Source: Escherichia coli O157:H7
Lineage (GTDB): Bacteria > Pseudomonadota > Gammaproteobacteria > Enterobacterales > Enterobacteriaceae
Assembly: GCF_013167455.1 (NCBI RefSeq)
Contig: NZ_CP038328.1
DNA length: 64,000 nt
Direction: 5' to 3' (one strand)
Made by a program: the position numbers. Positions 15,001 through 21,000 of the stretch are shown here, piece by piece. Within the stretch, counting starts at the first letter, position 1. The number at the start of each line of letters is the position of its first letter.

Positions 15001-18000
15001 TGATAGCCAGAGCAGATTGTTCTGATGCGCCAAACAAGATATCTGCATTTTTTTTGGCATCTTCATTCCATTTGTTCTGTGGGCCGTAATGAACGTTCAC
15101 TATAATACCTGTTTTTTCGGCATAAAGTTTGGCTGCATCAAGCAAGGCTGTATGCGGGCCACCAGGACCATACAGATTGATATCAGCATAAGCAGCAGAA
15201 GACAGGAATATTAAAAAACCTGCCATTATGTTCCTCATAAAAAACTCCTTTTATTGGTTATCATGAAATAAAGTTATAAACACTACAAATAATATATATT
15301 ACATCCAGATAAACTTATCCGACTTTACCTCGTGCATAGCTTGTTATTTAAAGTCAACAAAATAAGGAAAATTATACGCATATTGAAGAGTATAAACCTT
15401 ACATGTTGATTACATTTTTGTAATCAACATCCTGTTTGGAATAGCCAGCCTTTAATGGATAACTATTTCTGACAATGCAATGAGTATAATCAAGTCCATC
15501 TTCCACTGAGAATTAGAGGCGGCATGCTTTTTCCGGCTCTTGCCGGATATCCGTAATTGTCCATAATCTGCAGATTTATACCTTCTGCATGACCTGTCAG
15601 CGAAAATTTGTCCGGTGTTTCTACGGGAATGACATCAAAAGTTACACGCACTCGCGTTACCGTGTAGACCTACTTTCCTGCACTTGCAAGATCACAGTGG
15701 TGTAACCGTAACAGGAATTTATTCTCTGGACCGGCAGTAAATCCCTGAGTGGCGTGGTTCCCATATCAATTTCCCGCCAGGCAGCCTCCATTGCCAGCGT
15801 ACAGGCTGGAGCCATGACCTGCCCTTTAAATCTGGCCCGACCATCCCACCGGACGTGTTCTTCTCCCCTGAACTTAGGTACAGTCATCTCCAGTGGCACA
15901 AAAGTGTCAGCGCCATAATTTTTGACCGTTATCGCGCTACGGATATTTTGTTGACTGGTGAAAATCACCCCGCAGAATCAGGCTTATTCCCTTAACCTGG
16001 GCTTTCATCCTGACCGCCGCCTCACTACGACCAATCAGACTGCCGATGCATTTTACCTTCATTGTTAGTATCATGATTTCAGGCCTGCACCATCCGCTCA
16101 TTGCCCGGACTTCCGACAAATCCCGGCAACCATATCCCGGTGCTTGTTCAGCTCCCGCAGCGCGGCGCAGACTCGCTCCCACTTCTGGACATGATTCTTC
16201 GCCCTACGCAGTTCGCGATTTGCCATATGCAGCGATGGCAAAATCAAATCATCTTCTCGCGTTGCAGTAAACGATGGCAGCGACTGCACAATGTCCGCCA
16301 CAGTTTCTGTTTTAATATCTTCCTGTGTTGCATCTTTCTGTACCGGTAACGCAACACCGGCTGGCTGAGGAAAGGCTTTACCATCGGTTTCCGCTACCGA
16401 TTCAACTTTCGGCTCTGCTGGTAAATTATCACCTGGTATGCAGTAACGAATTTTACCGTTCTGGTTTACGCGAATCAGACGACCTTTGCTGATTGCCATT
16501 GCCAGCGTTGAAGCAACTTTGCGGGATGTTGTACCGAACAGCGTAGCCAGTTCATCCGCCGTTTGTGGTCCGCGTTGTTCAATCGTCGCGGTTAAATCGC
16601 ACTCTGAGATTTTCGCTTCTGTTGCCGTGGTGGTTTCTTCTGGCGCTGGCTGTTCCTGCTGAACGTTGTTATCAGCCACACGCCAAGTGTATACGCTTTT
16701 ATCAACGAAGCCAGCCTTTTTCAGTTCCCACAGCTCGTTCAGTACTTCTTCACGACTGATATCAAGTCGCGCAGCCAGCTATACCGACGTGGCTTTTCCC
16801 ATCGCTTTCAGTGCGTCAAAAACAGTCTCCATAAATTTCCTCCCGGTAAAAAATCACTTCTCAACTCAAACAAAACCAGCCGCTTTCCGGCGTTCATATT
16901 CCTGTTTCAGCAACTCAATTGGCGTTGGCCCCGACGGGCGTTTGGGGGCCGCCAGTTGTCGCCGGACTGGCGGAACGCTCAGGCCGTTACTAACATGCTT
17001 TGCCCATTTCGTCAGTTGCCGTTCTGCAAGCCGTTTTAATTCCCCTTCGGTCATCTGGCGCTCAATCCCCTTTGAACGCATCTCGAGGCAAATGTGATAC
17101 AGCACAGGCTGAGACCACGGGTACTTATCACTTCCGTCGTATCGCCAGGACTCATTGCGCCAGCGGCGGTACTCCTCCATCACAGCATCCACCGTCAGAC
17201 CGAATGGATTGGCTCCGCTTTTCGAAATCAGTGCCACAAACTCAGCCAGGTCCGGAGGCCATGTTTCACCCGCCCGGCAGCGGTCCATGCACTGGCGGCA
17301 GACCTGCCGGATTTGCTGCTCAGTCATCGCGCCAATCTGTGCAATCCAGAGCTTCGAAGGTGCGGCCCCGTTCTTCTGGATCCAGCGGTTCGAATAAACC
17401 ACCCCCATGAGTTCCCACAGCTTCCAGGCCGTTTCCGTCGCTGATAAATCCGTTTTCACGTTCCCACTGCTCACGTGCTGCCCGAATTTCCTGAACTGCC
17501 CGTGATGCGGTGCCACCTGGTGCTGCTGCATGGTTTACCCCTTTGCTGACTGGTTTAACCTGCGCCCTGACGTGATTTACGTGACGGGCGAATTTCTGCT
17601 CCCACTGAATCTGCGTAAACACTTTCCCCTCCGCTGCCCAGTAGTCCCGGAAGGCGGCAAGTTCAGCAGGTGTAAATTCTGTCTCCGGCAAAGCCATCCC
17701 CCACAACGCAGCCCGTCGTCGAAAATCCCGTGACGGATACCAGCTATCGCTCATCGGGAATTTTCCGATGGGTTCGCTCAGGCCATACAGGAATACAGGG
17801 GGGGCTGCCTGTAACGACAAAACTTCCTGCTCACTGGTCGGAGCACTCTCGCGTGCGTTATGTGTGGGGTTTAGATCTTTGGGTTCCTTTGGGTTCCGTG
17901 ATCCGTTTTTGGGTGTCTTTGATGGAAAATTTGGGTGTCTTTGGTTATTTTCCATGCAGCTAAGAGTTCTGTTTTTGGGTCTGTTTTGTGCTGAAACATA

Positions 18001-21000
18001 ACCATTTTCGGTACTGTTTTTATTAACAGCACCAATTTTACCCACCTTTAAAGACTCCCGTTTTTGGGTGTATTCAGGCTCGGCAACACTTTCTTCTACA
18101 CCGATAAGTCGGTACACCACAATTTGCTTTGTTCTGCCTTTTCTCTCACCGGTATCAACAATTAACCCAATCTCCATCAGGTGTCGTAAGCTGTCCTGCA
18201 CAGTCTTTTTGTTCAGTTCCGTTACTTCTGCCAGTGCAGATACAGACGGGTATGCACACAAATCGGCACCGCACATATCAGCAAGCCAGGTCAATACTGA
18301 CTTACTGGATGAACTGCCGGTTTTCACCTTTTTAGCCCATCGTAGTGCATCGATACTCATACGCCCCCCTGGCAGACATTTGTTTATCTGCAAAGTAATA
18401 TTGGTATTGCTGACGATACGCGTGCTTGAAAGCAATAGCTTTTTCTATAAGCTCGTCAGTCTCACGTTCCACAACAACTGGATCCGCAAAAAGCAGCCCG
18501 GACTCCACCACATCGCCATATTCTTTGTTTAACCCGGCGATCATGTACGTAATGCTTTTTCCGTCAGTAATTTCACAATACAATCTGAAATCGCTGATCC
18601 GGATAGCCTCCATAATTGCCGGAATCAGCGCCGTGAATTTGTCACGCTTATCTCTGGTGTCGATAGCTTTCCAGCGTTCGAATATCTTCACCCGGTTAAC
18701 GCCCAGCGCCCGTTGATCAACCTCGCCATCATTAAACGTGACGCGTTGAACATCGATGTTCGGGCGTTCTTTCAGAGCCCAGAATGCTTCCGTGATTAAT
18801 ATCGTCGCCTGCTCCTGTGTCATTCCTGGTCGGCATACCCAGGTATCCAGAGCCTCACAAACCTGTTCAGTGGTGATTTTCATTGTTCAACCGCCCCGCC
18901 CGCTTTGCCTTACGATATTCGTCATAAACTTTGGGGTCGTACTGAAGTTCCCCGCCGGATGCCTCTTGCAGGCGCATCGCGCGACCTTCAGGAACCAGTT
19001 CCCCCCATGCAGCAACGCTTGCCAGCCTAACTCCTGCGACATTGGCAAGCTTTGTTTTGCTGCCAAAAAACGCTATAGCATCAATTTTCAACATATCGAA
19101 ACCCTTAGATTTTCCTAAGGAAACTAGATCGTAGAGAAACCTAAGTCAAGAAAAATTAGAATTACCTAATATGAAAAACGAAACCTTCGGTGCTCGCCTC
19201 TTATACAGGCGAAAAAAATTAAAACTGTCTCAGGCCGCATTAGGTAAGCTGGTCAAAGTGGCTCACGTAACAATTTCTCAATGGGAAAGAGATGAAACAC
19301 AGCCAGCGGGGAAGAGATTATTCGCACTGAGCCAGGCGCTTCAGTGCTCGCCGACTTGGCTTCTTTTTGGAGATGAAGATAAGCAACCAGGCGAACCGAT
19401 CCCAGATAATCAGCCAGTCAATCTGACAGAAGATCAAAAAGAGTTGCTTCAACTGTTCGACGCACTGCCTGAGTCAGAGCAAAAGGCTCTGTTGTCAGAG
19501 ATGCGTGCTCGAGTTGAGAATTTCAACAAACTTTTTGAAGAACTACTCAAAGCTCGCAAAAGAAGCGCAAATAAATAACCCCCCTTTTTTTCGCAACTCT
19601 CTGTAATAAAAAGCACAAACTTTCAAATACTTGTGTTTTTTACATCAAGAAGCTTAGGTTTTTCTACACAAAAAGCTTGACCATAACTCTTAGGCTATTC
19701 TAAATTCCACTCATCAAGACACCGCACGGTGTTCTCAGCAAACAGTTCCGCTACCCGGCGTTAAGGGGAAGCAGAGGATTTCTCAGTGGGCGAGTCAAAC
19801 ATCAGAATGGAAGGCGTCCAGGGATCAGCAAAGAAACAGCGATGGCGCTTTATATTGATATCAGCGCCATTGCCGGACAGGTAAGAGTTATCAGAGCGGT
19901 AACTAAGCGGTATGCGCCTTTACTTCAGAAAGTCTCTGGTGAGTGCACCGAAGATATTGTCAACGATTTCGTCATCGAACTGCGAGGACTCATCTTCAGT
20001 TACAAGGTGACCACAATTTTTGCAGATGGCTCCCGCGAAACTGTCAGAGCCCTGCGGCTTAAAGGATGTGTCAAAGACTTAGCCACCACATTCTGGGCAA
20101 GAAAACTTGATTGTATTCATAACCAATTTCCTCTCGAGTAACAGACCCCTCAGAGGATACCACCTCGCCTGACGTGGTTAAAAAGCAGGCAACGCTAACC
20201 ACAAGGAGCCGACATGCAGAAACGAGACCCCGTCATCATCGCGCCAGACTATACCGATGATGAACTTTATGAGTGGATGCACCAGAAAATTAAGGCGGTG
20301 CAGGACCTGAAATGGGCCAATGAAGCCAGGGCTAAGCAGGCTGAAAATCTGTCCGCTCTGGAGCAGGATATCACCAATCTGGAAAAAGCAGCGGCATTAA
20401 GCATTGCCAGAATGATTACATACCCACGTTAATAGCTAACCAACGAGGCTAATAATGGAATTTAAAGATTTACCAACGCCATTACAGGAAATGGCATCGA
20501 ATATAGTTCGTTCACAACTGGCTACTCTTGACCTTAGTACCGCAGAAAAAGAAACCATCGATAATATGGTTCGTAATGTGCGCAATGCTTTTTCTGGGCT
20601 ATATGGTTCTGATAATCAAAAGCAGGAAAGCGATGTTAATAAACGGGTAATTTCTGTTTGCGTGAATGGCCATGTTCTTTCATCAATCAAAACAGAAACG
20701 GCGACAGTCTTCGATTGCCTTTGCATTGTACAGAGCCTTGTTGATGCCCTGTTTCGTTCAGTGAATTTAGAAAATGATGCAAATCTGCGAGGGCGCATAA
20801 TAGCACATCCATATGCACATACTTTAGGCTCTGTGGATATCAAAGATCCCACAAATCTTTAATGAAATAGTTAACGCGAATTGTACTTGCTCTTTCGGTT
20901 GCTTTCAGAATACGCGTTGAAACTGCTGGCGGTAATTTGGTATTCCATTTATTAAAATCATGCCCGGGAAAGTACTCTTCGAAAATACTTTTAACTGCAG

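Follow-up and report, generated by a model that had tools for sequence, protein, structure and literature searches.

The repeat array at positions 17874-18075 of the window (the whole stretch of Escherichia coli O157:H7 DNA analysed here, 64,000 nt in length) probably represents the iterons of the Sp9 prophage origin of replication. These presumed binding sites for the initiator are part of the gene that encodes it and lie in linker-coding DNA. The repeats are real, the constraint on them acts on the DNA, and they have been inherited with the N-terminal domain of the initiator as one module across many phage lineages, and it is by analogy that initiator binding, melting and helicase loading are proposed to take place at the array. 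A candidate phage origin of the lambda arrangement had been put forward by a sequence-only reading of this region, and this proposal is supported by the intragenic array, the multi-frame cores, the arrays of relatives and the P-like loader.

The prophage is Sp9, integrated at ompW, and its initiator gene is an exact match to ECs_1768 of Sp9 in strain Sakai; an identity with Sp10/CP-933O was rejected because the Sakai record is that of Sp9. The genes of the replication region are as follows.

16866-17531, minus strand: ORF for a lambda-P-like helicase loader, 221 aa (Pfam Phage_lambda_P, 1.3e-16; phrog_109, 1.3e-61)
17320-18360, minus strand: ORF of the replication initiator gene ECs_1768, 346 aa (phrog_1032 'replication initiation protein', 8.9e-91)
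18332-18883, minus strand: YdaT/cII-like gene (Pfam YdaT, 3e-5; phrog_163 CII-like, 3.1e-40)
18867-19094, minus strand: cro-like gene (Pfam P22_Cro, 3.2e-13)
19171-19578, plus strand: divergent cI-like repressor gene, HTH without a peptidase domain (Pfam HTH_3, 4.3e-14)

The loader gene, of which the RefSeq annotation covers just the last 153 aa (16866-17327), lies directly downstream of the initiator gene, as expected for a lambda-type origin. The cro-like and YdaT/cII-like genes (18332-19094, minus strand) form the upstream part of the initiator's rightward-type operon, and transcription of this operon passes through the array. The domain content of the divergent repressor agrees with the published description of the Sp9 repressor as having no peptidase domain (PMC2669165). 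In O157 Sakai, circularization, replication and packaging of Sp9 were all scored positive (PMC2669165 Table 2), the replication score being based on qPCR of circular junctions, an assay that does not map the origin (PMC2669165). The Sp9 initiator module was found in 907 of 5426 E. coli genomes (~17% of complete genomes), 790 of them with at least 99% identity, and some genomes carry 2-4 copies.

In total, eight copies of TTTGGGT (ACCCAAA on the coding minus strand) were identified in the 64 kb, six of which lie on one strand within 192 nt (17878-18069). This is the most clustered 7-mer of the window, the next best reaching only three copies, and the largest cluster was four copies in 200 dinucleotide shuffles, and three when the local 350 nt were shuffled 5000 times. 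Two sites, 17908 and 17930, match the 14-mer TTTGGGTGTCTTTG perfectly; a third, at 17878, has 2 mismatches to it, and those at 17974 and 18063 have 3 each. All five are on one strand, between 17878 and 18076, in agreement with the at least five direct repeats counted from the sequence alone. If up to 3 mismatches are allowed, however, the 14-mer is no more frequent in the window than expected by chance (8 found and 6.8 expected), so that clustering tests were needed and the signal resides in the clustering. Tandem Repeats Finder (TRF) detected only the two 10-bp units described below, because the other units are interspersed rather than tandem, and Rfam, promoter and terminator scans yielded nothing inside the array. 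The ACCCAAA cores of Sp9 occupy all three reading frames (encoding TQK, RPKN, HPNF, TPKN, NPK and EPK), which argues for a constraint on the DNA rather than on the peptide.

The functional unit, as defined from relatives, is ~18 bp long and reads AAnnRnnCCCAAAAACGG on the minus strand. The 14-mer proposed earlier as the repeat unit is thus a real repeat but corresponds to the reverse complement of only the left part of this unit. Besides five 18-bp units, the array contains a decayed position and two short units, and it encodes aa 96-162 of the stretch predicted by AlphaFold2 to be disordered, in accordance with the earlier placement of the repeats in the low-complexity linker of the initiator. 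The individual units and the AT-rich DNA are listed below.

18058-18075, minus strand: iteron 1, GAATACACCCAAAAACGG (out-of-sample PWM score 19.5, second best in 64 kb)
18032-18045, minus strand: decayed iteron position, GTGGGTAAAATTGG (counterpart ACACCCAAAAACGG in phage EPP-1, by site-for-site pairwise alignment)
18001-18018, minus strand: iteron 2, degenerate, AACAGTACCGAAAATGGT (PWM score 16.7, fourth best in the window)
17969-17986, minus strand: iteron 3, AAACAGACCCAAAAACAG (PWM score 17.5, third best)
17925-17942, minus strand: iteron 4, AAAGACACCCAAATTTTC, left half kept and right half gone (aligns with ACACCCAATTTTGG of EPP-1)
17903-17920, minus strand: iteron 5, AAAGACACCCAAAAACGG (PWM score 19.7, best match in 64 kb)
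17874-17897, minus strand: two tandem 10-bp units, GGAACCCAAA GGAACCCAAA GATC, partial copies (TRF period 10, 2.1 copies)
17980-18060, no strand assigned: AT-rich, least stable stretch of the gene body, candidate unwinding region (GC 0.29-0.39)

Iterons 1 and 5 alone match the full consensus in Sp9; iterons 3 and 4 lack the right half, and of the six ancestral positions two have degenerated or disappeared. Iteron 1 and its 3' flank are identical to iteron 1 of Edwardsiella phage EPP-1, the closest relative, and the arrays of the two phages align site for site. Among 54 unique E. coli sequences, variants of iteron 2 that are closer to the consensus were found (T357C in 14 and G352A in two), and gene nucleotide 391 in iteron 3, which is A in Sp9, is G in 47, restoring ...AAACGG; Sp9 therefore carries the minority allele at this site. 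The 10-bp units are located at the AT-rich segment of EPP-1 in the alignment, end at a mosaic junction and are probably not full iterons. The family matrix has only a weak dyad symmetry about the A-tract (best score, 0.37). The arms of an inverted repeat are easily recognised in phiV10 and GF-2, and in Sp9 iteron 1 alone appears near-symmetric on inspection of the sequence. The steps between the Sp9 cores (32, 44, 22, 20 and 10 nt) are roughly regular, but helical phasing was rejected as a family trait, since steps of 17, 18 and 24 nt are common in the family.

The family sample comprised ~50 diverged homologues of the N-terminal domain (51 distinct lineages) from named phages and IMG/VR viral metagenome contigs, the sources being phages of Edwardsiella, Vibrio, Acinetobacter, Burkholderia, Moraxella and Escherichia as well as the contigs. 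N-domain identities were 34-72% to Sp9 for ten named phages and 52-100% to GF-2 for the IMG/VR lineages. The question of whether homologous genes contain the repeats was answered in the affirmative: at least three CC[ACG]A[AT]3 motifs are present within gene nucleotides 240-600 in 44 of the 51 lineages, and most of the others contain 5-8 copies of a variant unit. Motif density at the array position is ~10-20 times that of the flanks, and the motifs occupy more than one reading frame in 42 of the 44 lineages and all three in 17. Conservation extends beyond the positions used for motif finding (A at -6 in 94% and G at +9 in 89%), and a matrix built from 47 other lineages gave the four highest scores of the window, searched on either strand, all inside the array and on the coding strand. 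The position of the array in the gene is constant over nearly all of the 51 lineages, and spacers, spacing and C-terminal domains vary. Similarity to Rac-type initiator genes ends at ~17880; this mosaic junction at the downstream end of the array indicates that the N-domain and the iterons travel together, as in lambdoid hybrids. An initial scan of IMG/VR gave 80 almost identical copies from E. coli, which were used for within-type variation only. The power of this comparison was weak: variation is similarly low in cores and in spacers.

An AT-rich element flanking the repeats had also been anticipated. Such an element exists, with the stability minimum at 18000-18040 (29% GC; nearest-neighbour dG -48.6 kcal/mol, 96.5th percentile of the window), but it is inside the array rather than a flank, and it is only moderately unstable compared with that of lambda (-44.4 kcal/mol). 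The lambda-like AT-rich block immediately after the last iteron is absent in Sp9, where the 100 nt downstream are 51-59% GC. EPP-1 is among the 27 relatives (of 50) in which the 40-bp stability minimum of the gene is downstream of the array, in most cases starting at its end, and the lambda control showed the same arrangement.

From N- to C-terminus, the initiator comprises a winged helix, a disordered linker and a DnaT-like domain (AlphaFold2 and Pfam). In the AlphaFold2 model, the winged helix is predicted with confidence for aa 1-90 and the DnaT-like domain spans aa 200-270.

18076-18360, minus strand: N-terminal winged-helix DNA-binding domain, aa 1-95 (AF2 pLDDT 92-98; H-H-H-H-E-E topology)
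17560-17760, minus strand: DnaT-like ssDNA-binding domain, aa 201-267 (Pfam PF17948, 9e-17, 61 bits against a cut-off of 25)

The N-terminal domain, which is presumed to be the iteron reader, matches generic winged-helix DNA binders in Foldseek searches, including the plasmid Rep-DNA complex 5kbj. Its Pfam HTH_36 (PF13730) match in Sp9 (3.3e-4, 20.8 bits) is under the 25-bit cut-off, and the same domain was found in all 49 aligned homologues at E<=1e-3 (best, 4.6e-15). The linker (aa ~96-200) is K/N/P-rich and predicted by AlphaFold2 to be unstructured (pLDDT 40-55). The C-terminal domain (aa 198-268) matches the DnaT structures 6aep (1.7e-19), 4ou6 and 9zbt (1e-18 to 1e-19, 54-56% identity) and, by Foldseek, 6aeq (TM 0.79 across 71 residues); a DnaT domain is present in just six of the 49 aligned homologous initiators. 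The earlier description of the gene as 'O-like' applies to function and gene order (cro, cII-like, initiator and P-like) but not to Pfam membership: the Sp9 initiator and seven homologues had no Phage_rep_O (PF04492) match at E<0.01, whereas the lambda O control scored 123 bits. BLASTP of the Sp9 initiator against lambda O found nothing, and PHROG profiles 678 and 345 match both lambda O and the Sp9-type N-domain at overlapping profile positions, which suggests a distant homology only. Among plasmid Rep families in Pfam (Rep_3 and relatives), the sole match was a sub-threshold one to RP-C (E 0.0076, 16.5 bits against a cut-off of 24.4).

By analogy with lambda, derepression would lead to transcription from the cro-side promoter through the cro, cII-like, initiator and P-like genes. 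The winged helix of the initiator would then bind the ~18-bp units, and a multi-protein complex may form on the A-tract-rich DNA, with melting of the AT-rich DNA nearby. The DnaT-like domain could hold single-stranded DNA, contact the lambda-P-like loader, or both, and the loader would deliver host DnaB.

It is unlikely, but conceivable, that the array is an inherited and partly decayed origin that is silent in Sp9, amplification being due to other prophages or to excision alone. The degenerate or lost ancestral positions, the two further units without the right half-site, the minority A at nucleotide 391 and the missing downstream AT-rich block are all compatible with decay, as are other defects of Sp9 (PMC2669165 Table 1) and a YdaT-like neighbour gene flagged as frameshifted by RefSeq in one O157 strain. 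Against this stand the positive replication score of Sp9 (PMC2669165 Table 2), the intact initiator and P ORFs, and the retention of the identical module in hundreds of E. coli genomes (the 907 mentioned above). Two perfect and two good sites are also left in the array. Less probable still is that the repeats bind the initiator but serve mainly regulation, through roadblock autoregulation, handcuffing copy-number control or prophage incompatibility. Plasmid iterons have dual roles in replication and regulation, the Sp9 sites are within a transcribed gene and some genomes contain several copies of the module, all of which would fit such a role; the location of the array at the position of lambda ori and the downstream AT-rich block in the 27 relatives point instead to an origin, and the window contains no second cluster of the motif that could be an alternative one.

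That the repeats are by-products of a low-complexity PKNG-like peptide linker or of replication slippage, with no DNA-level function, is very improbable. The region does encode a disordered K/N/P-rich linker, and in some lineages (phiV10 and H20) all units are in one frame with 24-nt spacing, but the heptamer lies in three frames in Sp9 and the motifs in more than one frame in 42 of the 44 lineages, spacings such as 17, 22, 23 and 35 nt cannot be divided by three, and the DNA motif is conserved over lineages whose spacers are not. Least probable of all is that a host protein such as DnaA, in place of the phage initiator, binds the repeats. DnaA boxes are used by some phage and plasmid origins, and two matches with one mismatch occur in the initiator gene (18020, inside the array span, and 18250); however, the gene has no perfect box, DnaA-box matches (up to one mismatch) are not enriched in the scan (59 against 54 expected), and the motif tracks the phage N-domain in hosts from Burkholderia to Vibrio.

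As iterons of the Sp9 origin, the repeats provide a concrete candidate origin for an effector-carrying O157 prophage and for its module in ~17% of complete E. coli genomes. The analysis also provides an ~18-bp iteron consensus for a broad phage initiator family that databases label just 'helix-turn-helix' or 'DnaT-like'. In the literature searched (on this iteron sequence, on iterons with DnaT/HTH initiators and on Eru replication types), the Sp9 origin is not described and a binding or origin-mapping study of the HTH_36-type initiator family was not found; the Eru replication-type paper does not mention iterons. The consensus can be used for annotating phage origins and replication-specificity types, and it offers a handle on interference between co-resident prophages. 

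The proposed Sp9 origin is ordinary in kind, following the same plan as that of lambda, and its mechanism is not new. In both phages, the origin is inside the initiator gene between the regions for the N-terminal DNA-binding and C-terminal domains, contains several ~18-bp units with a CCC...A-tract...GGG core in different frames (0, 2, 2 and 1 for the lambda iterons) and is part of the gene order cro, cII-like, initiator and P-like loader, with the N-domain and iterons forming one exchangeable specificity module. The family iteron resembles that of lambda, as seen in phiV10 (GATCCCAAAAACGGGATC) and lambda (ATCCCTCAAAACGAGGGA). The two differ in that the Sp9 initiator is outside Phage_rep_O, its homology to lambda O being visible through the shared PHROG profiles only, and in that its C-terminal domain is DnaT-like; furthermore, the CCC-GGG spacer is 6 nt here and 9 nt in lambda, the dyad symmetry is weak in Sp9, and the AT-rich block is within the array rather than after it. 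Tentatively, and with considerable doubt, HTH_36-type initiators and lambda O might both derive from a single ancient module made up of a winged helix and CCC-A-tract-GGG iterons; its DNA code would then have hardly changed among phages of Gammaproteobacteria and Betaproteobacteria. On this speculative view, given the small differences between iteron types, initiators of co-resident prophages could cross-fire or block one another's origins, and such cross-talk would help explain the inter-prophage complementation and incompatibility in the O157 prophage pool, where some genomes have 2-4 copies of the Sp9 module.

Stx-phage origins (933W, P27 and others), whose replication regions are highly similar to that of lambda according to Kozlowska et al. 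2020 (PMC7466680), likewise belong to lambdoid prophages of the E. coli O157 group and have iterons of varying number in the O gene, but the Sp9 initiator is from another family (HTH_36 plus DnaT). Iteron plasmids (pPS10 RepA, R6K pi, F RepE and staphylococcal Rep) share with Sp9 a winged-helix initiator and direct repeats beside DNA that melts or, in Sp9, is proposed to melt; their iterons are intergenic, whereas those of Sp9 are within the initiator coding sequence, and Sp9, which has no Pfam Rep_3 match, would use a lambda-P-like loader for helicase delivery. Finally, E. coli DnaT (primosomal protein I) acts in PriA-dependent restart without sequence-specific origin binding, whereas the DnaT-like domain of Sp9 is fused to a winged helix, the putative origin reader.

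The prophage adjoining ompW fills the window up to approximately position 25990. E. coli O157:H7 chromosomes share 100% identity with the window, and the early region of the prophage is 99.9% identical to that of the O157 Sakai prophage Sp9, including an initiator gene (ECs_1768, labelled 'phage replication protein' in Sakai) in which no base differs. Cro-like, YdaT/cII-like, initiator, and lambda-P-like genes are located on the minus strand in this order:

18867–19094, minus strand: cro-like gene
18332–18883, minus strand: YdaT/cII-like gene (intact 183-aa ORF in the window and in Sakai)
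17320–18360, minus strand: initiator gene
16866–17531, minus strand: lambda-P-like loader ORF
19171–19578, divergent from these early genes: cI-like repressor gene

The YdaT/cII-like gene of O157 strain TR01 is called a frameshifted pseudogene by RefSeq (PGAP). The initiator and P-like ORFs overlap by approximately 212 nt in different frames (17320–17531), which may represent a genuine long overlap or an old frameshift. PHROG and Pfam profiles reach the last residue of the initiator and start at aa ~19–60 of the P-like ORF; phrog_15931 matches the two as though they were one fused protein, and the P-like gene is cut to 153 or 140 aa in the RefSeq and Sakai records, avoiding the overlap. Downstream, the replication module is closely followed by the paa/adfO adhesin gene (AcfC family; 14480–15238). 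Two further elements adjoin the prophage hokD toxin gene: a sok antitoxin RNA (14142–14291, minus strand) and an IS3-type frameshift element, the ALIL pseudoknot (13329–13445, minus strand). In the late-regulatory region, Rfam identified the sRNA STnc100 (7652–7860, minus strand), the AgvB anti-GcvB sRNA (7591–7650, plus strand), and two tRNAs (7973–8046 and 8130–8202, minus strand; Arg and Ile in RefSeq). In the chromosomal part, three RtT RNA repeats alternate with two tRNA matches (50875–51609).

The sequence-only reading had placed at least five lambda-ori-like direct repeats in the linker-coding part of the initiator gene. Five copies of its 14-mer were indeed found on one strand at 17878–18076, allowing up to three mismatches. 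Six copies of the core TTTGGGT (coding strand: ACCCAAA) fall within 192 nt, against only two in the remainder of the 64 kb; every other 7-mer of the window reaches at most three copies per 200 nt, and the largest cluster was of four copies in 200 dinucleotide shuffles and of three when the local sequence was shuffled 5000 times. The array encodes aa 96–162, and the AlphaFold2 model, built on 49 homologues, shows no structure at aa ~96–200 (pLDDT 40–55), confirming the linker location. The heptamer is read as TQK, RPKN, HPNF, TPKN, NPK, and EPK, that is, in all three frames; in lambda, which served as the positive control, the four annotated iterons fall in frames 0, 2, 2, and 1. The constraint on the repeats thus acts at the DNA rather than the peptide level. 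DnaA boxes showed no enrichment, and no Rfam family and no promoter-like or terminator-like site was found in the array.

The same model contains a confident winged helix (aa 1–90) and a confident DnaT-like domain (aa 200–270), the latter clearly matching the DnaT single-stranded DNA-binding domain. All 49 aligned homologues match HTH_36, and the N-terminal domain (N-domain) of Sp9 was grouped by Foldseek with generic winged-helix DNA binders. C-terminal domains are more varied, with DnaT found in six of the 49, Phg_2220_C in the Edwardsiella phage EPP-1, and neither in the others. The downstream partner gene is P-like in Sp9, phiV10, and GF-2, and encodes a DnaB-like helicase in AP22. A tblastn search with the N-domain as query detected phages of Edwardsiella, Burkholderia, Acinetobacter, Vibrio, Moraxella, and Escherichia, as well as a podovirus from a wastewater (EBPR) metagenome, with N-domains 34–72% identical to that of Sp9. 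Most of these phages carry their own array right behind the N-domain, although none was evident there in BS46:

EPP-1: unit AAAGACACCCAAAAACGGG, six copies
phiV10: unit GATCCCAAAAACGGGATC
GF-2: unit GATCCCAAAATTGGGAT
H20: unit AGGCCCGAAAACGGTAC, six copies
Bcep176: unit ACAGTCCCAAA, at least seven copies
AP22: unit AATGAACCCAAAAACGG
Mcat8: differing, ACAAATTTTGCA-like unit

An IMG/VR scan added 42 distinct N-domain sequences, giving 51 lineages together with the named phages. Repeats, as expected of homologous genes if the array is an origin, were present in most of them: 44 of the 51 contain at least three CC[ACG]A[AT]3 motifs at gene nt 240–600, where motif density is approximately 10–20 times that of the flanks, and most of the others contain five to seven copies of the variant AACAGTCCC or AACAGTACC. 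The motifs occupy more than one frame in 42 of the 44 lineages and all three in 17.

A lineage-weighted matrix yielded a unit of ~18 bp, AAnnRnnCCCAAAAacGG, with weak dyad symmetry about the A-tract; two positions not used in motif finding, A at -6 (94%) and G at +9 (89%), are strongly conserved. A weight matrix that drew on 47 lineages and left out Sp9 and EPP-1 was run over both strands of the whole window; its four best matches (17903, 18058, 17969, and 18001; scores 16.7–19.7) are all coding-strand sites of the array, and the best score elsewhere was 13.7. Pairwise alignment with the array of EPP-1, the closest relative, matches site for site at six positions. The following sites were identified:

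18058–18075, minus strand: iteron 1, full consensus
18032–18045, minus strand: decayed iteron position
18001–18018, minus strand: iteron 2, weak unit
17969–17986, minus strand: iteron 3, right half damaged
17925–17942, minus strand: iteron 4, right half damaged
17903–17920, minus strand: iteron 5, full consensus
17874–17897, minus strand: two 10-bp units aligned with the AT-rich stretch of EPP-1

The Sp9 array is slightly eroded relative to its own type, because most E. coli variants carry a better iteron 3 and some a better iteron 2: among 54 unique variants, 47 have G at gene nt 391 (A in Sp9), restoring ...AAACGG in iteron 3, and 14 have C at nt 357, improving iteron 2.

The AT-rich element sought next to the repeats was found in part. 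A segment of 29% GC (18000–18040) lies inside the array, between iterons 1 and 3 where sites have decayed, but the DNA past the array (51–59% GC) forms no AT-rich flank. No other part of the gene body is as unstable as this segment (dG -48.6 kcal/mol, at the 96.5th percentile for the window). In the lambda control, the 40 bp of lowest stability in the O gene (-44.4 kcal/mol) begin three bases past iteron 4. Among 50 relatives, the corresponding stretch lies downstream of the array in 27, in most of which it starts where the array ends, inside it in 15, and upstream in 8. Sp9 departs from this majority, and here the parallel between its copy and lambda is at its weakest. Of the 11 positions specified in the 13-mer consensus of E. 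coli oriC, GATCTnTTnTTTT, 10 are matched by the AT-rich segment that follows the last iteron of EPP-1 (~1974–1989; GATCTTTTATCTTTT on the bottom strand) and only 8 by its Sp9 counterpart GATCTTTGGGTTC (17872–17884), both judged by eye.

The Sp9 gene resembles Rac-type initiator genes, which encode a DUF1376 N-domain, only at 17320–17880; in Rac-SA53, the junction to this common part, ...AGATCT...AAACCCCACACATA, sits just beyond the last repeat. Because the similarity ends there, the N-domain and array form a single exchangeable module, which is present in 907 of 5426 complete E. coli genomes, mostly in one copy and at most in four. In lambdoid hybrid phages, the N-domain and array are likewise swapped as one module. 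The DnaT-like C-terminal half of Rac-SA53 ydaU (L174, 1201–2271) is ~90% identical to that of Sp9, and an AT-rich GATACAGATACAGATCT segment precedes the junction. Rac-type genes contain a single CCCAAAAACGG and no array of it, so that any origin they have within the gene must belong to a different type.

Asadulghani et al. (2009; PMC2669165) found Sp9 positive for circularization, replication, and packaging, with O and P functions that appear intact. These data are consistent with a working origin and do not give its position. Taken with the repeat evidence, the array very probably comprises the iterons of the origin from which Sp9 replicates. A literature search yielded no paper that describes iterons or maps an origin for initiators of this family, and the family-wide consensus and its Sp9 member are, as far as we could find, undescribed.

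The Sp9 initiator is not to be classed in the lambda O family, since it matched neither Pfam Phage_rep_O (123 bits for the lambda O control) nor, by BLASTP, lambda O itself. The two proteins share matches to PHROG profiles 678 and 345, at overlapping profile positions, phrog_391 joins an N-domain of the Sp9 type to a lambda-O-type C-terminus, and the iterons of lambda and of this family are alike in running from CCC through an A-tract to GGG. A distant ancestry of the whole module shared with that of lambda is plausible on these sequence grounds. Origins of this kind, with iterons inside the initiator gene, are already well known; the putative Sp9 origin is lambda-like in organisation and differs in its predicted reader, a different winged-helix initiator, perhaps a distant relative, that carries a fused DnaT-like domain.
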